A stretch of DNA of 64,000 nucleotides from the NCBI GenBank assembly GCA_902762905.1, contig CACWQE010000006.1, forward strand, positions 113 through 64,112, given 5' to 3'. The notes under the pieces are model-generated. The model worked only from the letters and a program-made list of their open reading frames with translations. It was not told the origin of the DNA and did not search any database. Source of the stretch: an uncultured Lachnospiraceae bacterium (lineage in GTDB: Bacteria; Bacillota; Clostridia; Lachnospirales; Lachnospiraceae). Both the position numbers and the translations under genes were made by a program. This document shows, one piece after another, positions 17,056 through 63,999 of the stretch (positions are counted from its first letter, which is position 1; each line of letters starts with the position of its first letter).

Positions 17056-17087
17056 CTTATTCTTATATCATCTTATTCTTATATCTC

Positions 17088-17175
17088 GAATCCCTACGTT
17101 AGCATTACCTAAATCAGGTTGCGGGTCGAAGTTGATGACTTCCTCTCAGCCTGCTTCACAAGCTCCCCGTTCTTA
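17088..17175 (-). promoter_or_regulatory. TPP (THI-box) riboswitch aptamer
   Basis: The minus-strand sequence is GGGGAGC..GCUGAGAGG..ACCCGCAACCUGAUUUAGGUAAUGCUAACGUAGGGA. This matches the conserved CUGAGA and ACCUGAU...GCUAxCGUAGGGA cores. It lies upstream of thiC. Confidence 0.9.
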
Positions 17176-17189
17176 TTCAGTTCCTGTCT

Positions 17190-30366: not shown

Positions 30367-30978
30367 CTATTGTAAGAAATTTTCTAACATCTCTTTGCCA
30401 TACTCGGTAAGTACGGATTCGGGATGAAACTGGAATCCGTAAATTGCCTTATCTTTGTGCTTAACTGCCATCACCTCACCGTCATCTGTCTTAGCGATCA
30501 CCCGTAGACATTCCGGCATTGCTGCCGCTTCCGCTGCAAGGGAATGATATCTTGCAATCTTAATATTCTCTGGAATTCCCGCAAAAACCGGTTCCTTCTC
30601 ATCAAATGTGATCGTACTCTGTTTGCCATGCATCAGTTCTTTGGCATATACGACCTTGCCACCGAATGCTTCACAGATTGCCTGATGTCCTAAGCACACA
30701 CCAAGGATCTTAACCGGACGATCATATGTTTTTAACAATTCTTCGCAGATACCGGCATCCTCCGGTCTTCCCGGTCCCGGAGATAAAATGATATATTCCG
30801 GTGCCAGCTTCTCGATCTCAGCGACCGTCAGTTCATCATTACGCACCACCCGGATTCCATAATTCTCATCTTCTCCTTCTGCAATCTTACCCTGTTCATA
30901 TCGTTCTTTCTGAATCCCTCCGATCAACTGCACCAGATTGTAGGAAAAGCTGTCATAATTATCAATCAGTAATATCAT
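30367..30978 (-). CDS. trpG: Anthranilate synthase component II (glutamine amidotransferase)
   Basis: The start MILLIDNYDSFSYNL, the catalytic GVCLGHQ and the FHPES motif are present. The ATG at 30976-30978 overlaps the trpE TAA by 1 nt, so the 21-aa N-terminal extension in the track is unlikely. Confidence 0.9.
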   Translation of the reverse strand: MILLIDNYDSFSYNLVQLIGGIQKERYEQGKIAEGEDENYGIRVVRNDELTVAEIEKLAPEYIILSPGPGRPEDAGICEELLKTYDRPVKILGVCLGHQAICEAFGGKVVYAKELMHGKQSTITFDEKEPVFAGIPENIKIARYHSLAAEAAAMPECLRVIAKTDDGEVMAVKHKDKAIYGFQFHPESVLTEYGKEMLENFLQ

Positions 30979-32432
30979 TATCCATTCACCTCCGCTGCAC
31001 GCTTCACCGCTTCGATCACGGCTCCTGCTTTGTTGGCACATTCCATGTACTCACTCTCCGGTACACTGTCTGCCACAATGCCGGCTCCTGCCTGTACATA
31101 TACCTTGTCACCCTTTTTCACTGCGGTACGAATGGCAATGCAGACATCTAAGTTACCAGAAAAATCTAAGTATCCAATGGCTCCACCATATACACCTCTT
31201 GCAACCGGCTCTAACTCGTCAATGATCTCACATGCCCGGAACTTCGGTGCCCCGGATAAAGTTCCTGCCGGAAGCGTTGCCGCAATCGTATCGCATGCAT
31301 CCTTGTCCTTACGGAGCTTACCAACCACCGTGGACGCAATGTGCATCACTTTGGAAAACCGGTGTATCTTCATATATTTTTCTACTTCCACGCTGCCAAA
31401 TTCGGCTATCCGGCCAATATCATTTCTTGCCAGATCCACTAACATGTTATGCTCTGCACATTCCTTCTCATCCGCTAACAGCTCTGTCTCTAATGCCTCA
31501 TCTTCTTCCGTTGTCTCACCGCGTTTTCTGGTTCCTGCTACCGGAAATGTAGTAAGTTTGCCGTTCACTAACTTAACCATTGTCTCTGGAGAGGTTCCTG
31601 CAATCTCCATATCCTCACACCCAATGAAGTACATATATGGTGAAGGATTTGTCGTTCGGAGTACCCGGTAGGTATTGATCAGGCTGCCCTTATAATCTGC
31701 CTCAAATCTTCTGGAAATAACACCCTGAAAGATATCTCCCTCCCGGATATAATGTTTGGTCTTTTCCACCATATCACAATACTCTTCTTCGGAAAGGTTA
31801 CAGGTAAATTCCACATTCTTATCTGCCTCTTCCTCCGCTAATGGCGTGGTATCCTGAATCAGATGGATCATTTTTTCAATCTCGAGTAACGCTTTCTTAT
31901 ATCCCTTCTCGCCATCCTCACTCCGGTAATTGGTGATCACACTGATCTTCTGCTTCAAATGGTCATAAGCAATTACTTTATCAAATAACATTAACTTATA
32001 ATCATCAAAATCACTCTTTTTTAAATGTAGCTTTGGTTCGGCATATCCGATCATCTCATAAGAAAAATATCCGACCAATCCACCGGTGAAGCTTGGCATT
32101 CCCGGAATTGCCGGTGAATGATACCGGTCAAGCAGATTGCGAAGTGCTTCATATGCATCCTGTTTCTGCTCTGTTACCATGGCTCCGCTCTGCATCCGCA
32201 CCACACCATCTTTGCAACTGATCTGTAATAACGGACTCACACCTAAGAAAGAATATTGACCCCATTGCTTGCCACCCTCCACACTTTCCAGTAAATAATA
32301 GCGGTTGTCGATCTCCTTCAGTCTCCGAAGCAGGGTGATCGGTGTCACAACATCTGCGTAGATCTCCTTGCATACCGGAATCATATTGTATTCTTTTTCG
32401 TATTGCTTCGCTGTCTCATAGTTTGGAAACAT
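30978..32432 (-). CDS. trpE: Anthranilate synthase component I
   Basis: The 484-aa product has chorismate-binding-family motifs (GAPK, GxYGGAIGY). Confidence 0.93.
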   Translation of the reverse strand: MFPNYETAKQYEKEYNMIPVCKEIYADVVTPITLLRRLKEIDNRYYLLESVEGGKQWGQYSFLGVSPLLQISCKDGVVRMQSGAMVTEQKQDAYEALRNLLDRYHSPAIPGMPSFTGGLVGYFSYEMIGYAEPKLHLKKSDFDDYKLMLFDKVIAYDHLKQKISVITNYRSEDGEKGYKKALLEIEKMIHLIQDTTPLAEEEADKNVEFTCNLSEEEYCDMVEKTKHYIREGDIFQGVISRRFEADYKGSLINTYRVLRTTNPSPYMYFIGCEDMEIAGTSPETMVKLVNGKLTTFPVAGTRKRGETTEEDEALETELLADEKECAEHNMLVDLARNDIGRIAEFGSVEVEKYMKIHRFSKVMHIASTVVGKLRKDKDACDTIAATLPAGTLSGAPKFRACEIIDELEPVARGVYGGAIGYLDFSGNLDVCIAIRTAVKKGDKVYVQAGAGIVADSVPESEYMECANKAGAVIEAVKRAAEVNG

Positions 32433-32515: not shown

Positions 32516-32790
32516 CATAAAAAAAAGCTCTTGCCCCCTAAGGGACAAAAGCTTTATAAACAACTTCTGCGGTACCACCCAAATTGATGCATTGCATCCA
32601 CTCTTCCTATATACTATCATATATATCCCATTGATAACGGACAGGTTCCCGTTGGCACCTACTCTGCAAATGCATTTCAAGCCACCCTCGTAAGTCCATT
32701 CACCTATTGACCACCCGCTGCATCTCACCACCACAGCTCTCTGTACAGTTTCACAATAGCTTACTCCTCTTACTCATCGGTTTCGTAGTA
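32516..32790 (-). promoter_or_regulatory. T-box riboswitch with a Trp (UGG) specifier and terminator
   Basis: On the minus strand, Stem I carries AGAGAG; the specifier-loop context is GUGAA-UGG-A (UGG = 32696-32698); the T-box motif is AAUUUGGGUGGUACCGC (32567-32585); the terminator is AAAGCUUUUGUCCC-UUA-GGGGCAAGAGCUUU followed by eight U. Confidence 0.88.
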
Positions 32791-59542: not shown

Positions 59543-60439
59543 TTACTCCTCAAATGGAATTACAGCTCCATCGTAAGTCTTATTGATAAAGTCTTTGATC
59601 TCATCTGACTTCAATACATCTACTAATGCTTTCACACCCTCGTTATCTTCATTTCCTTCTTTGACTACGATAACATTTACATAAGTCTTAGCTGCTTCGG
59701 AATCTGACTTCTCATAAGCAAGAGAATCCTTTGCGACAGAGAAACCTGCCTGCAATGCATAGTTACCATTCAATACTACATAAGCAACCTCATCTGCAAC
59801 TCTTGCTACCTGCTCTGCTGCTAACTCTTCAATCTTGATGTTATGAGGATTCTCTGCAATATCATTAACCGTTGCTTCTAATCCTGCACCATCCTTTAAC
59901 GTAATGATTCCGTTATCCTGTAATAAAAGCAATGCACGTGCCTCATTTGTAGTATCATTTGGTACTGCGATCGTATCGCCATCTGCAATATCATCCAAGC
60001 TCTTCTTTGTTCCCGGATAGATACCAAATGGCTCATAGTGGATCTTGCCAACCTGCACTAAATGGGTTCCCTTTTCTTCGTTGAAACTATCAAGATATGG
60101 TATATGCTGGAAGTAATTTGCGTCAATCTCGCCACCTTCTACTACTTCATTTGGTAATACATAATCGTCATACTCCGTTACTTCCAGATCCCATCCCTCT
60201 TTTGCAAGAATTGGCTTTGCTGCTGCAAGAATCTCTGCGTGTGGGGTTGCAGATGCCGCTACCGTAATGGTTCCCTTAGATTCTACATTGGCATCGTCGC
60301 CACTCTCAGAAGCTTCCTGTGTCGTCTGCTTATCCTCTGTTGCTGCAGTTGTGCTCTCATCTGCACTGCTTCCGCATCCGGTTAATACTCCTAATGATAA
60401 TACACTTACTAAAATACCTGCTAAAATCTTCTTTTTCAT
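59543..60439 (-). CDS. metQ: Methionine ABC transporter substrate-binding lipoprotein
   Basis: It has the lipobox LTGC and an NlpA/MetQ-family pattern (ATPHAEIL, NYFQH.PYL). It lies in the metNIQ operon. Confidence 0.88.
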   Translation of the reverse strand: MKKKILAGILVSVLSLGVLTGCGSSADESTTAATEDKQTTQEASESGDDANVESKGTITVAASATPHAEILAAAKPILAKEGWDLEVTEYDDYVLPNEVVEGGEIDANYFQHIPYLDSFNEEKGTHLVQVGKIHYEPFGIYPGTKKSLDDIADGDTIAVPNDTTNEARALLLLQDNGIITLKDGAGLEATVNDIAENPHNIKIEELAAEQVARVADEVAYVVLNGNYALQAGFSVAKDSLAYEKSDSEAAKTYVNVIVVKEGNEDNEGVKALVDVLKSDEIKDFINKTYDGAVIPFEE

Positions 60440-60533
60440 AATTCTTTCCTCCTGATTTTGATAATTAATTTATATGAAAGTAATATAACATCTCTGCTTT
60501 CCCCTGCTCTTTTGTCATATCACTATCATTTAC

Positions 60534-61196
60534 TTATTTTCTGCGATCAAACCGATCCGCTAATTTCATTCCTACAGTCTGGAAGATCTGGAATAAAATG
60601 ATCAATAATAACACCGTTACAATCATGATATCTGTCTGCCATCTGGTATATCCGTAACGGATTGCAATGGCACCAAGTCCACCACCGCCAACGGTTCCTG
60701 CCATAGCGGAATAACCTAAGATGGTTCCCAAGCTGATGGTTGCTCCCACGATCAGGGAAGTTCTTGCTTCTACCAACATTACCTTCATGACAATCGTAAA
60801 ATTGGAAGCTCCCATAGAACGGGCTGCCTCAATCACTCCGGCATCCACTTCTTTCAGTGAAGATTCTACCATTCTGGCAATGTATGGTGCTGCAGCGATC
60901 ACAAGTGATACGATCATGGCAGTTGGCCCGTAACTCTTACCTACCAACAATCTGGTAAATGGAATCAATACAACCAGCAGAATAATAAATGGAATACTTC
61001 TTACCAGGTTGGCTATGAAATCTAGTATCTTATATACGACTGCATTTGGATGAATCCCATCCCGGTCTGTCACGGTTAATACAATTCCCATCGGAAGTCC
61101 TAACACATATCCAAGCAATGTAGATACCAGCGTCATGTAAAGTGTCTCTCCGATTCCTACTATGATCATGTTTGTTACTTCACTACTCCACATCAC
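60534..61196 (-). CDS. metI: Methionine ABC transporter permease
   Basis: The 220-aa product has 5 TM helices and an EAA-type loop (EAARSMGAS). It overlaps metN by 14 nt. Confidence 0.88.
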   Translation of the reverse strand: MMWSSEVTNMIIVGIGETLYMTLVSTLLGYVLGLPMGIVLTVTDRDGIHPNAVVYKILDFIANLVRSIPFIILLVVLIPFTRLLVGKSYGPTAMIVSLVIAAAPYIARMVESSLKEVDAGVIEAARSMGASNFTIVMKVMLVEARTSLIVGATISLGTILGYSAMAGTVGGGGLGAIAIRYGYTRWQTDIMIVTVLLLIILFQIFQTVGMKLADRFDRRK

Positions 61197-62220
61197 CGGT
61201 CACCTCCTCAATCTCTAATCCACAATCCGTCAGATACTGTTCCATATCTACCTGCAGATGCTTATCTTCCGGCAATCCTAATATCATTTCACCCTTGGCT
61301 ACGCCACCGACATTCTTTGTATCCGCCCGGAGAATATTGACCGGTGTTCCAAACTTTAAGATCATATTGGCGATAACCGGTTCAAATGCGGAATTATCTG
61401 AAAAGACAATCCGTATCTTACGTTTGCTTCTTAACTGCTCTACTAAAGCATCCTGTTTACTTTCTATCTCCGTATCCGGGCGATCCCGTAGGATCAGTTC
61501 CTTTGCGGCCTTCGATTTCGGATGATTAAAGATATCTGTCACCAATCCATCTTCTACCAAGGCACCCCGTTCAATGATTGCTACCCGGTTACAGATCTCC
61601 CGAATCACGGACATCTGATGTGTAATGATCACAATCGTAATTCCGAACTGTTCATTGATCTGCTTCAATAATTCCAGAATCGATGCCGTTGTCTGCGGAT
61701 CCAACGCACTCGTTGCTTCATCACAAAGCAGGATCTTTGGATTGGCTGCCAGCGCTCTTGCAATCGCAACTCTCTGCTTCTGTCCACCGGACAGCTGTGC
61801 CGGATACGCTTTCTCTTTCTCTTCTAACCCGACTGTCTTCAGAAGATCTCTTGCCTTTGCTCTCGCTTCTTTCTTCTTCACTCCCTGAATCTGTAATGGG
61901 AAACAGATATTATCTAACACACTCTTTTGCATCAACAGATTGAAATGCTGAAAGATCATTGCAATATCACTTCTCTGTTCCCGAAGTTCTTTCTCATTCA
62001 AAGTTCCCAGATCTTTTCCCTCAATCAACACCTGACCTTCTGTTGGTCGTTCTAAGTAATTCAGACATCGTACCAGGGTACTCTTACCTGCACCTGACAT
62101 TCCAATAATTCCGTAGATATCACCCGATTCAATATTTAAGTTAATGTCCTGTAATGCATGAACCGTAATTCCCTTTTGTTCAAATGTCTTAGACAGATTC
62201 TTTACTTCAATCTCTACCAT
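61183..62220 (-). CDS. metN: Methionine ABC transporter ATP-binding protein with a C-terminal NIL domain
   Basis: Walker A is GMSGAGKST, the signature is LSGGQKQR and Walker B is ILLCDEATSALD. The C-terminal regulatory domain of about 100 aa is typical of MetN. Confidence 0.92.
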   Translation of the reverse strand: MVEIEVKNLSKTFEQKGITVHALQDINLNIESGDIYGIIGMSGAGKSTLVRCLNYLERPTEGQVLIEGKDLGTLNEKELREQRSDIAMIFQHFNLLMQKSVLDNICFPLQIQGVKKKEARAKARDLLKTVGLEEKEKAYPAQLSGGQKQRVAIARALAANPKILLCDEATSALDPQTTASILELLKQINEQFGITIVIITHQMSVIREICNRVAIIERGALVEDGLVTDIFNHPKSKAAKELILRDRPDTEIESKQDALVEQLRSKRKIRIVFSDNSAFEPVIANMILKFGTPVNILRADTKNVGGVAKGEMILGLPEDKHLQVDMEQYLTDCGLEIEEVTGDVE

Positions 62221-62249
62221 ATATCTCTTCCTTCCTGCTCAACGATTCG

Positions 62250-62283
62250 CATAAAAATAAGAACCATCGCGAAGATGGTTCTT
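62250..62283 (-). terminator. Intrinsic terminator in the metN 5' leader
   Basis: The minus-strand RNA AAGAACCAUC-UUCGC-GAUGGUUCUU forms a 10-bp perfect stem followed by AUUUUUAU. It lies about 30 nt upstream of the metN ATG. Confidence 0.8.
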
Positions 62284-62314
62284 ACTGATCCATGATGTTA
62301 TATTCTATACTCAA

Positions 62315-62446
62315 TCAAACCGAAGCATCTAACGCATATTCTCTATTATTCCATTTCACACAACAATCCATACCGCAGCACATACCCATAGTGCCGCCCA
62401 TCATATTGCATGTCATTATGTGATTCATAGAAAATGTTGTTCTCAT
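62315..62446 (-). CDS. 43-codon Met/Cys-rich leader ORF upstream of metNIQ (absent from the ORF track)
   Basis: Hand translation gives MRTTFSMNHIMTCNMMGGTMGMCCGMDCCVKWNNREYALDASV. It has 8 Met and 5 Cys in the first 29 codons. AAAGGAGAA lies about 9-10 nt upstream of the ATG, and the stop lies 32 nt before the terminator stem. Confidence 0.55.
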   Translation of the reverse strand: MRTTFSMNHIMTCNMMGGTMGMCCGMDCCVKWNNREYALDASV

Positions 62447-62516
62447 ATCTCCGGTTCTCCTTTCTGTAATGTCTTACTGTCTTACTGTCATCCGGTAATT
62501 CCTTTTGACATTGCCT

Positions 62517-62546
62517 ATTATAACAAGCTCTCACAGAAAGTGTTAA
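62517..62546 (-). promoter_or_regulatory. Candidate sigma-A promoter of the met leader
   Basis: On the minus strand, TTAACA (62541-62546) is followed by an 18-nt spacer and an extended -10, TGTTATAAT (TATAAT = 62517-62522). Confidence 0.5.
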
Positions 62547-62628
62547 TACTTAAAACCTTTTGTTTGCCATAGTCTTATCCTATAGCAAAACTTTCCTCTC
62601 TCTCCTGCCTTTCATCGTTTACTACTGT

Positions 62629-63999
62629 TTATAATTGTGCCAGATATCCCGGCTCTAAACATTCCAATACCTTTTCCTTCGGCAACGGCTTGGAATAATA
62701 ATAACCCTGGATATAATCCGCTCCCATCTCTGTAATGAGCTGTGCCATGGTAAGATCTTCGATTCCCTCCGTTACCACATCCAGATGAATCTTCTTAAAC
62801 ATAGCAATAATATTCTCTAATATCACCTTTGAAGTCTCATTCTTCATTGCCGCCCATACCAGATATTTATCAATCTTCACGATTGAAAATGGCAGATCAA
62901 CCAGATAATTGATATTGGAATAACCAGAGCCATAATCATCTAAAGAAAAGGACAATCCCGCTGCCTTCATCTTCTTCATATTCCGTATCAGCCGCTCTTC
63001 TGAATACGCCGCTGCACTTTCCGTAATCTCTAAATTGATCATTGCCGGATCAATCTCATATTTACGAAGAATCTGTAAAATATCCTCTCCGATATGCTCC
63101 TGCATACACTGTACAACCGACAGATTCACTTCAATAAATGCAATTCCCTTCTCCTGCAGATGACACTCTTTATAGAATTTACACACCTCTTCTAATACCA
63201 ATAAGCCAATCTTAAGGATCGTACCATTCTTCTCTGCAATGCGTATGAATTCTTCCGGTGACACATAGCCATATCCCGGCACCTCCAATCTAGCCAATGC
63301 TTCCATGGAATGAAATCTTCTCTGCTTTGTATCATAGATTGGCTGATAATGTACTTCAAAAGTATCCCGCTCAATGGAATTGATGATCGCCTGTTCAATT
63401 GCCGCATGACGCGATATTTCCGTTGCACTACTCTCGGTTATCTCGACAAACTGACCTTTTCCCACCTTCTTGGCTTGTTCTACACTGTATTCAATTGCAT
63501 CCTCCAAGCTCTCCTCGGAATGATGAATCGAATGTACCAGACAGATACAGGCACCAAGCTCGGTATCACTGTCATTAAGATGCCACTTCTGATGCAATAT
63601 GTTCTGAATAGTCTCCAACTCCTTCGCTCCCTCTGTTGTCTCCTTCAAGACAATTGCAAACTTGTCCCCACCAAAACGATAGACCGACGAGGTAGAATAC
63701 TGCTTTTGTAATGCCTCCACCAGCATGCGCATCAATTCATTACCACCTGCGATTCCATACACCTCATTAATGATCTTGAAATTATCAAGTGCCAGAACAA
63801 AGATCTGCTCTGGAAAGCTCTTTTTCTTATATGTCTTAATATGATGGGAAAATGCCTGCCGGTTCAATGCTCCTGTTGTGGCATCCACATACATGATCGA
63901 ATTCTCATTTGTCAGATACATAATAAAAATCGTAAGCGCTGTTCCAATTCCTGACAACATGTACTCCGGGATTACAAACTGCACAAGCGTTGGCAGCAA
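62629..63999 (-). CDS. GGDEF-EAL domain protein (N-terminus beyond the window edge)
   Basis: The GGDEF-like domain has the motif RFGGDKFA (E to K). The EAL domain has EALAR, DDYGSGYSN, KIDK and EGIE. The ORF is open to the end of the window. Confidence 0.85.
   Translation of the reverse strand: MLPTLVQFVIPEYMLSGIGTALTIFIMYLTNENSIMYVDATTGALNRQAFSHHIKTYKKKSFPEQIFVLALDNFKIINEVYGIAGGNELMRMLVEALQKQYSTSSVYRFGGDKFAIVLKETTEGAKELETIQNILHQKWHLNDSDTELGACICLVHSIHHSEESLEDAIEYSVEQAKKVGKGQFVEITESSATEISRHAAIEQAIINSIERDTFEVHYQPIYDTKQRRFHSMEALARLEVPGYGYVSPEEFIRIAEKNGTILKIGLLVLEEVCKFYKECHLQEKGIAFIEVNLSVVQCMQEHIGEDILQILRKYEIDPAMINLEITESAAAYSEERLIRNMKKMKAAGLSFSLDDYGSGYSNINYLVDLPFSIVKIDKYLVWAAMKNETSKVILENIIAMFKKIHLDVVTEGIEDLTMAQLITEMGADYIQGYYYSKPLPKEKVLECLEPGYLAQL

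Follow-up and report, generated by a model that had tools for sequence, protein, structure and literature searches.

The metNIQ operon of an uncultured Lachnospiraceae bacterium lies on the minus strand of a 64,000-nucleotide stretch of contig CACWQE010000006.1 (hereafter the window), and its three genes encode an uptake transporter of the ATP-binding cassette (ABC) type. Based on the list of open reading frames (ORFs) and on Pfam domains, the operon spans positions 59543 to 62220 of the window and consists of metN (62220-61183), metI (61196-60534), and metQ (60439-59543). MetN carries the ABC_tran and NIL domains, MetI carries BPD_transp_1, and MetQ is an NlpA lipoprotein. The gene upstream of the leader encodes a GGDEF-EAL protein according to Pfam. 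The leader itself contains a promoter, a short ORF crowded with methionine (Met) and cysteine (Cys) codons, and an intrinsic terminator that stands directly before metN. Our comparison of sequences makes it quite likely that this leader attenuates transcription in a ribosome-mediated way, like leaders of the trp/his/leu type, and would thereby read the charging of tRNA-Met and tRNA-Cys.

The metNIQ leader

The leader begins with a sigma-70-type promoter (62517-62546, minus strand), in which a -35 element, TTAACA (62546-62541), and a -10 element, TATAAT (62522-62517), are separated by an 18-nucleotide (nt) spacer with a TGn motif. This promoter matches the consensus at 11 of 12 positions, is one of only two promoter-like sites in the 1-kb region that was scanned, and is located 71 nt upstream of the ATG of the leader ORF. 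The same arrangement, GTATTAACAC...TATAAT, is also found ahead of the leaders of three related loci (L003, L009, and L020) from the collection described below. Transcription would start near 62510, which leaves a 5' untranslated region (UTR) of roughly 50 nt. Two tandem copies of a motif, CAGUAAGA, are present in the 5' UTR (62464-62510, minus strand; GACAGUAAGACAGUAAGACA), and a third copy lies where the 5' arm of the terminator has its base (62279-62286, minus strand; AUCAGUAAGAAC).

The leader ORF (62315-62446, minus strand) is preceded by a Shine-Dalgarno (SD) sequence, AAAGGAG (62457-62463, minus strand), 10 nt ahead of the AUG. It runs for 43 codons from the ATG at 62446 to the UGA at 62317-62315 and encodes the peptide MRTTFSMNHIMTCNMMGGTMGMCCGMDCCVKWNNREYALDASV. 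Met is found at codons 1, 7, 11, 15, 16, 20, 22, and 26 and Cys at codons 13, 23, 24, 28, and 29, so that the two amino acids make up 13 of the first 29 codons (8 Met and 5 Cys). Codons 7 to 29 (62360-62428, minus strand), with seven internal Met and five Cys, form the putative sensor tract, on which ribosomes would stall. An earlier note, made from the sequence of the window, had described the same promoter, SD, and 43-codon ORF with its 13 Met/Cys codons, and all of these were reproduced when we read the minus strand of 61900-62900 together with the ORF list. In public annotation, the exact peptide is a hypothetical protein, MDD5999944.1, with no other name. A database search recovered homologues with 77 to 89% identity from close relatives only, the peptide had no Pfam match, and peptide homology and family searches gave no named family.

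Downstream of the ORF is an intrinsic terminator (62250-62285, minus strand) made up of a 12-bp hairpin (62285-62257) and the tract UUUUAUG. The hairpin, GUAAGAACCAUC-UUCGC-GAUGGUUCUUAU, has an energy of -15.3 kcal/mol and was recovered both by an RNAfold-based search and in the minimum free energy (MFE) fold. For the family to which the window belongs, three covarying pairs in this terminator are evident in alignment A1. The earlier note had placed a hairpin with a U-tract at this site before metN, which was correct, whereas its figures of 10 bp and about 30 nt to the ATG become 12 bp and 36 nt. The ribosome-binding site (RBS) of metN, GGAAGGAAGAG, is read from the sequence at 62225-62235 (minus strand). 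A scan for sigma-70-type promoters listed no site between the terminator and metN; given this result and a distance of just 36 nt to the ATG, there is no room for a separate metN promoter.

Enrichment of Met and Cys codons

The density of Met and Cys codons in the leader ORF is hard to attribute to chance. Our control consisted of 592 kb of sequence, namely the window and 80 related loci that were fetched through MetN similarity, with 21,458 stop-to-stop frames. Only 34 of these frames held at least 8 Met plus Cys per 15-codon window. Twenty-four of the 34 were on the coding strand, 128 to 281 nt upstream of the metN start, and the remainder were mostly Cys-only antisense or off-frame artefacts. 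Candidate poly-Cys ORFs that we saw downstream of metI in four loci (L059, L060, L073, and L078) were rejected as artefacts, being off-frame readings of metQ. Within the window, the leader ORF reaches 9 Met plus Cys per 15 codons, while every other frame has 6 or fewer. Past the initiator Met, 12 of the 42 residues of the window peptide are Met or Cys, which has a binomial probability of 7e-8 relative to local protein composition. When 18 representative peptides from approximately 16 sequence families were pooled, Met accounted for 17.9% and Cys for 10.7% of residues, compared with 2.9% and 1.2% in neighbouring proteins.

Search for known RNA sensors

T-boxes and riboswitches are the norm in Clostridia, and in Firmicutes the usual controllers of metNIQ (or metNPQ) operons are S-box riboswitches, which bind S-adenosylmethionine (SAM-I), and Met T-boxes. 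When the whole window was searched against Rfam at gathering thresholds, nothing was found in the metN leader, and the only matches were a T-box at 32538-32786 and a thiamine pyrophosphate (TPP) riboswitch at 17074-17179. A permissive search of 62150-62700 returned only noise (E values of 0.1 to 8). Specifically, SAM families had no match in 62150-62700, either at gathering thresholds or at E values up to 10, and the T-box model RF00230 had no match in the metN leader. The earlier note had recognised neither an S-box nor a T-box core in the leader, and this held up once Rfam was consulted. The pattern extends to other genomes: in 60 related loci that were scanned whole at gathering thresholds, there was no SAM family, and upstream of metN no Rfam family of any kind, riboswitches and T-boxes included.

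The two elements that were detected elsewhere in the window are both on the minus strand. The TPP riboswitch (RF00059) scored 67.7 bits. The T-box leader (RF00230) scored 101.7 bits and has the specifier loop GAA-UGG-A, which contains a Trp codon. It precedes an ORF at 30978-32432 (minus strand) that corresponds to trpE, the gene for anthranilate synthase component I (Anth_synt_I_N and Chorismate_bind domains). Because a genuine Trp T-box was detected in the same window, the negative result for the metN leader is not a failure of the search. Its position upstream of trpE also suggests that the organism uses a T-box for trp but a leader peptide for metNIQ.

Related leaders in Lachnospiraceae and metagenomes

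To place the leader among its relatives, we collected the 80 loci with the most similar MetN from a search of one genome per GTDB species. All of them are from Lachnospiraceae, with 65 to 95% MetN identity, and about 79 were assessable. An SD-led, Met/Cys-rich ORF of 31 to 54 codons was present 79 to 220 nt upstream of metN in 24 of the 80 loci. In two others (L072 and L076), such an ORF stands ahead of a gene for a fused SBP_bac_3 and NlpA-type binding protein that precedes metN, which brings the count to 26 loci. All 26 share one layout, in which an SD, a short Met/Cys-rich ORF, an intrinsic terminator, and the transporter genes follow each other. Among the carriers are cultured bacteria, including Roseburia inulinivorans DSM 16841, Coprococcus catus, Coprococcus intestinihominis, Hominiventricola filiformis, and Ohessyouella blattaphilus. 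Nearly all of the related leaders have a GGAG-type SD ahead of the start codon, the clearest exception being L051 with a weak AAAGGAU, and an intrinsic terminator (-9.8 to -20.5 kcal/mol) was found between the ORF and the next gene in 27 of 27 leaders. The peptides, in contrast to these shared elements, are nearly unalignable between families, as can be seen from MKTTFHQNMNQNMMMTGCVDMCMMCMMNMAY, MVALGHQHSWSTDMMMCSCGIMCGMHMVDDTVIFDAQ, MRTLFNNYISMCMCCCRMLFSRACM..., and MRNNNITATNMMMCCGMQMNVCMDVFRVCHKA. The earlier note had proposed looking for sulfur-rich ORFs in front of metN orthologs, and the outcome favors its reading, since the ORF persists with its Met/Cys bias while the peptide sequences have diverged almost wholly.

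Metagenomes yielded similar results. The pattern with which we scanned them imposed no reading frame and had the SD-spacer and the end of the ORF as its anchors. Of the 117 loci that matched, 115 were real leaders, including two new peptide subfamilies. An intact in-frame ORF was retained in 113 of the 115, as was the terminator (also 113 of 115). In-frame indels are tolerated in the related ORFs. Since composition, frame, SD, and terminator are maintained without maintenance of the peptide sequence, these data argue for a regulatory leader peptide instead of a functional small protein.

The alternative is that the ORF encodes a genuine small sulfur-rich peptide, whether metal binding, redox active, or used for sulfur storage, that has its own terminator, and that metNIQ is transcribed by leaky read-through or from an unrecognised promoter. 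Public databases do annotate the ORF as a protein, on hundreds of contigs, and as a matter of general knowledge Cys/Met clusters such as MCCGMDCC resemble metal-binding motifs. Yet the roughly 16 families have almost nothing in common other than composition, and their peptides vary in length from 31 to 54 residues. The most conserved stretch is kept at synonymous sites, which indicates a constraint at the level of RNA. Furthermore, the ORF is always found between promoter and terminator, directly before metN or a MetQ-type gene, and the promoter scan listed no site from which metN could be transcribed separately. The absence of a Pfam match and of modifying enzymes or exporters nearby, where the neighbours are the GGDEF-EAL gene and metNIQ, likewise speaks against a sulfur-rich peptide, including one that is ribosomally synthesized and posttranslationally modified. 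We consider this explanation highly unlikely.

It could also be argued that the leader is an undescribed RNA that binds a metabolite or a protein, for example a new SAM or Met aptamer or a target for a TRAP-like protein on AUG/UGY triplets, with the ORF being incidental. A new class could be missing from Rfam, TRAP is generally known to recognise repeated triplets, and the ribosome-free leader folds somewhat better than shuffled sequences (z = -2.44). Against this, the Met/Cys tracts of different families share codon content in one frame only, with no common sequence or structure. The AUG/UGY triplets are strictly in phase with the SD and AUG, in a frame that is open up to a stop beside the terminator, and a binding array would need neither. 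The tolerance of in-frame indels is also at odds with such an RNA, which we regard as very unlikely.

Several observations concern individual relatives of the regulatory leader. Despite their diversity, most of the leader peptides start with M-R/K-T (AUG AGA ACA or AUG AAG ACN), the rest of their sequence being unrelated; this applies to the window and to L001, L003, L017, L034, L039, L046, L072, and L076. The shared start may reflect common ancestry or a constraint on initiation or early elongation. In the closest relative (L001, 95% MetN identity), an insertion of about 126 nt is located between the leader terminator and metN (approximately 2840-2970), and it is also found in L128. The L001 insertion is rich in hairpins, has a second terminator-like stem, AAAGAGUCGCAAGCGACUCUUU, and may be a small mobile or repeat element. 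In L086 (metagenome contig OLZB01005668.1), a leader of the R. inulinivorans type has an intact ORF and distal spacer, with the terminator region swapped for unrelated sequence; this is either a natural terminator-less, perhaps constitutive, variant or an assembly artefact. Frameshifts occur in the leader ORFs of L082 and L120.

Other relatives connect the leader with cysteine. In many of them, cysK is directly upstream of metN. The leader ORF of L072 (about 910-1030; MRTSVKSVKTMCMCCCCRMLNSQ...) and that of L076 (about 730-850; MRTLFNNYISMCMCCCRMLFSRACM...) are each followed by a gene for a protein of 572 to 606 residues and then by metN. In L072, a domain scan identified the product of this gene as a fused SBP_bac_3 and NlpA lipoprotein, that is, cystine type and MetQ type; the gene of L076, which is of similar size, is a putative counterpart. 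The leaders of L017 and L019 are related to those of L072 and L076 and stand directly before metN. In addition, L032 (1720-1840; MKKKNGILCKVAKDGKNVMCCCCMMIK) and L053 (about 1700-1845; MRPRTGSRDLCSEKRMCRIRKEKRMEVMCCFMCR) have SD-led, Met/Cys-rich ORFs ahead of a cysK-like PALP gene, with metN coming next, and no recognisable intrinsic terminator follows the ORF in either locus. These two may be translational or Rho-dependent variants of the same sensor. Dual sensing of Met and Cys is plausible in light of the adjacency of cysK and metN in relatives, the fusion of a cystine-type binding protein to MetQ in L072, and the Met/Cys-rich ORF preceding cysK-metN in two loci.

The spacer between cysK and metN contains a conserved promoter-like block, TTGAYAAAT-N-C-N-GC-N-WTTCATRCTAAAGTAGTCA, in L040, L042, L045, L050, L053, L055, L057 to L061, L067, L070, and L078. 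It is possibly a promoter plus an operator for a sulfur regulator. A conserved noncoding element that we had suspected upstream of metN in L040 to L079, where off-frame ORFs looked conserved, turned out to be the 3' end of the cysK (PALP) gene.

Alternative RNA structures

The leader of the window can form three pairings, all of which are energetically feasible. Region 1 is the spacer between SD and AUG, AACCGGAG (62449-62456, minus strand), which pairs with CUUCGGUU at the end of the ORF to give the 1:2 helix, an anti-antiterminator. Region 2, GCG UUA GAU GCU UCG GUU UGA UU (62313-62335, minus strand), spans the final six codons together with the stop codon and extends 2 nt past it. This region serves both as the 3' strand of the 1:2 helix and as the 5' strand of the antiterminator, and it falls within the footprint of a terminating ribosome. 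As the upstream strand of the 2:3 pairing (62335-62313), it is separated from the last Cys codon, which lies 5' of it, by 25 nt or more. Region 3, GGAUCAGUAAGAACCAUCUUCGC (62269-62290, minus strand), supplies the 3' strand of the antiterminator and shares nucleotides with the 5' arm and loop of the terminator. The 2:3 antiterminator joins GCG..GAUG.UUC...UUGAUU with GGAUCA...GAA.CAUC..CGC. Pairing energies are similar, at -13.4 kcal/mol for 1:2, -14.6 kcal/mol for 2:3, and -16.7 kcal/mol for 3:4, the terminator with its flanks.

Which of these structures prevails in folding predictions depends on where ribosomes are placed. The MFE fold of the ribosome-free leader, for which the z score given above was obtained, combines the 1:2 helix with the terminator. 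When the leader was masked from the SD to the stall site (codons 16 to 29), with the 3' arm of the terminator not yet made, the MFE structure was the 2:3 hairpin. A ribosome placed on the stop codon covered region 2 with its footprint, and the terminator formed in masked folding. The 1:2 helix is present in all subfamilies of the window's group (-9.6 to -16.9 kcal/mol), with a G-C/A-U exchange at one position. The RBS of metN is outside the predicted structures.

Within the window's group, support for the antiterminator comes from conservation. Six subfamilies that were folded independently have the same antiterminator architecture, at -12 to -17.5 kcal/mol. Of the antiterminator cells in alignment A1, 92.6% are paired, compared with 30 to 59% in slid controls. 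Position A61 of this alignment belongs to the GAA of the terminator 5' arm; all 19 sequences pair it in the antiterminator, and 10 of the 19 leave it unpaired in the terminator. The CGC of the terminator loop is conserved and pairs with a GCG codon in the antiterminator. Similarly, the codons that close the ORF, GAU GCU UCG GUU UGA, are conserved at their synonymous positions across subfamilies, including loci that were fetched via MetN instead of a DNA pattern. The GAA of the 5' arm, the CGC of the loop, and the synonymous sites of the last codons are all kept even though the terminator does not need them, which supports the antiterminator. From an antiterminator-only alignment, RNAalifold predicted the core AGAUG:CAUCU plus UUC:GAA. 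The earlier note had proposed an antiterminator between GAUGCUUC, which does lie at 62329-62322 as it claimed, and GAACCAUC. That pairing is the invariant core of RNAalifold's independent prediction, but the predicted antiterminator is longer, and a conserved 1:2 helix has to be added.

Sister families provide further evidence. Extensive pairing between the terminator 5' arm and a segment upstream of it is predicted in L017, L019, L034, L072, and L076, with duplex z scores of -3.5 to -6.7. In most of these loci, the segment belongs to the ORF and follows closely on the Met/Cys codons; the ORF segment of L076, UCCCGGGCC, reproduces the 3' arm of the terminator exactly. More generally, the segment from the stalled ribosome to the terminator loop folds better than mononucleotide shuffles in 14 of 15 families (mean z = -1.64; Stouffer Z = -6.4). 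In 17 of 18 representatives, some of the terminator 5' arm, and as a rule the greater share of it, is sequestered in the pre-terminator fold by a partner located in the 3' end of the ORF or near its stop. From such predictions, the antiterminator appears unambiguous in sister families, and the case for the window would rest on conservation together with these families. Whether the specific 1:2, 2:3, and 3:4 assignment is right for the window could go either way.

Proposed mechanism

The elements described above can be assembled into a cycle of attenuation. Transcription would start near 62510, and the leader ORF would be translated as RNA polymerase proceeds. With Met and Cys plentiful, the ribosome would reach the UGA at 62317-62315 and cover region 2, such that the 3:4 terminator could form and transcription would stop before metN. 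If either Met-tRNA or Cys-tRNA ran short, the leading ribosome would stall within codons 7 to 29, and following or initiating ribosomes would occupy region 1. Region 2 would then be bare as region 3 emerges, and the 2:3 antiterminator would use up the 5' arm and loop of the terminator, allowing read-through into metNIQ. In the absence of translation, the 1:2 helix and the terminator would be expected, making the default state off.

A number of results weigh against this scheme. Taken alone, the antiterminator of the window was no better than that of shuffled sequences (duplex z = -0.27; fold z = -1.2; third test z = -1.0), and RNAalifold recovered just the 8-bp core, at -4.4 kcal/mol. Covariation in the antiterminator is scarce in alignments A1 and A2, with two pairs showing a double change, which can be explained by the fact that these segments hardly vary. 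When a single stalled ribosome was masked, folding still favored the 1:2 helix plus the terminator. For this reason, the model works only if queued or initiating ribosomes occlude region 1, as we have assumed. There are also marks against the terminator of the window, as its U-tract is broken (UUAUUUUUAUG) and a simple terminator scan made no call for the hairpin that the RNAfold-based search and the MFE fold do show. Furthermore, Met starvation also limits the charging of initiator tRNA, and the resulting decrease in leader translation would favor termination. Finally, we infer that ribosomes stall, that region 1 is occluded while they do, and that the leader responds to amino acid supply, in the case of the Met/Cys response wholly so. 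Nevertheless, the leader-peptide attenuation that the earlier note proposed is supported by the comparative evidence, with ORF, bias, and terminator all being kept in orthologous leaders.

Comparison with known systems

The classical attenuators of E. coli and Salmonella (trpL, hisL, leuL, thrL, ilvL, and pheL) resemble the leader in several ways. They have a short translated ORF that is rich in codons for the regulated amino acid, a terminator just before the first structural gene, and four RNA segments whose 1:2, 2:3, and 3:4 pairings, which in the leader are predicted, have similar energy. As is proposed for the leader, more than one amino acid is sensed by thrL and ilvL. The leader differs in that Met and Cys would be sensed, in that its target is an uptake ABC transporter and not a biosynthetic operon, and in that its host belongs to the Clostridia. 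In addition, its regulatory codons are spread over about 23 codons without a tight run, its peptide is long (43 residues), and its region 1 is the spacer between SD and AUG instead of the regulatory codons. We know of no characterised Met or Cys attenuator of the classical type, and full-text literature searches found no Met or Met/Cys leader-peptide attenuator described in Firmicutes.

S-box riboswitches and Met T-boxes have in common with the leader their location in the 5' leader of a transporter operon and, under the proposed mechanism, an output in which terminator and antiterminator compete. However, the sensor of the leader would be a translating ribosome and not a SAM aptamer or a tRNA-binding RNA, and there was no match to a covariance model.

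The nearest precedent is from Actinobacteria. In Streptomyces lividans TK24, a leader peptide named "metL" was predicted from RNA-seq upstream of metNIQ, and the authors interpreted it as an attenuator (Front Microbiol 2021, PMC8079986). Its C-terminus has an alternating cluster, ...CMCRRMCAF, with three Cys and two Met; the transcript is leaderless and, according to the authors, lacks a typical intrinsic terminator (PMC8079986). Like the leader, metL is a short ORF with a Cys/Met cluster directly before metN of a MetNIQ importer. Unlike the leader, it is actinobacterial, leaderless, without a typical terminator, and known as an RNA-seq prediction only, and on inspection there is no obvious sequence kinship between the two. 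The statement of the earlier note that it knew of no such attenuation for metNIQ therefore has to be narrowed, since the S. lividans prediction precedes it (PMC8079986); for Firmicutes, none was found. In that phylum, leader peptides have been reported sporadically so far, such as a His leader in bacilli (PMC2965389).

Leader ORFs with Cys runs have likewise been predicted in Actinobacteria (PMC1262725), and in mycobacteria, poly-Cys leaderless upstream ORFs (uORFs) such as Ms5788A act on translation, where stalling at Cys codons relieves the repression of downstream sulfur-metabolism genes (bioRxiv 10.1101/834739). These mycobacterial and actinobacterial uORFs are leaderless, have consecutive Cys codons only, sequester the downstream SD, and lack an intrinsic terminator. 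In contrast, the leader of the window has an SD-led ORF, mixed Met/Cys codons, a hairpin with a U-tract, and no complementarity between the tract and the RBS.

The mycobacterial precedent, which works on translation (bioRxiv 10.1101/834739), invites a further explanation, namely that the ORF does sense Met and Cys by stalling but acts mainly on metN translation or mRNA stability. The L032 and L053 loci, with a Met/Cys-rich ORF before cysK-metN and no recognisable terminator, would fit this explanation by implying that the sensor can occur without one. Opposed to it are the hairpin and U-tract in all 27 of the window-type leaders, a duplex between the Met/Cys tract and the metN RBS that is no better than shuffles (z = -0.06), and the location of that RBS outside the predicted structures. 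For leaders like that of the window, we therefore think it unlikely that translation or mRNA stability is the main target. A purely translational mechanism may apply to the terminator-less cysK variants.

Compared with these systems, transcription attenuation at the metNIQ leader would follow a known logic, that of trp/his/leu, and probably in an undescribed form, for which the amino acid specificity (Met plus Cys), the target (an importer), and the clade are all new.

Implications

Classical ribosome-mediated attenuation is essentially undocumented for Met and Cys, two amino acids for which the accepted controllers in Firmicutes are S-box riboswitches, T-boxes, and LysR-type regulators. On balance, we lean toward the view that the leaders of gut Lachnospiraceae constitute an undescribed class of attenuator. 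In this class, a Met/Cys-rich ORF would read both tRNAs and switch on MetNIQ, as well as a fused cystine/Met binding protein or cysK in some lineages, taking the place of the S-box or T-box; it would be the first classical attenuator that senses Met. One question that such a leader raises is how it stays translatable under the very conditions in which initiator Met-tRNA becomes limiting, as a Met-sensing leader must. If our interpretation is correct, then hundreds of "hypothetical small proteins" would be re-annotated as regulatory leaders, and the leader would offer a compact natural part that reports the charging of Met- and Cys-tRNA. More generally, it would mean that RNA sensors have repeatedly been replaced by translational sensors, and that Roseburia, Coprococcus, Hominiventricola, and their relatives, which are abundant Lachnospiraceae of the human gut, possess a new sensor for sulfur amino acids.

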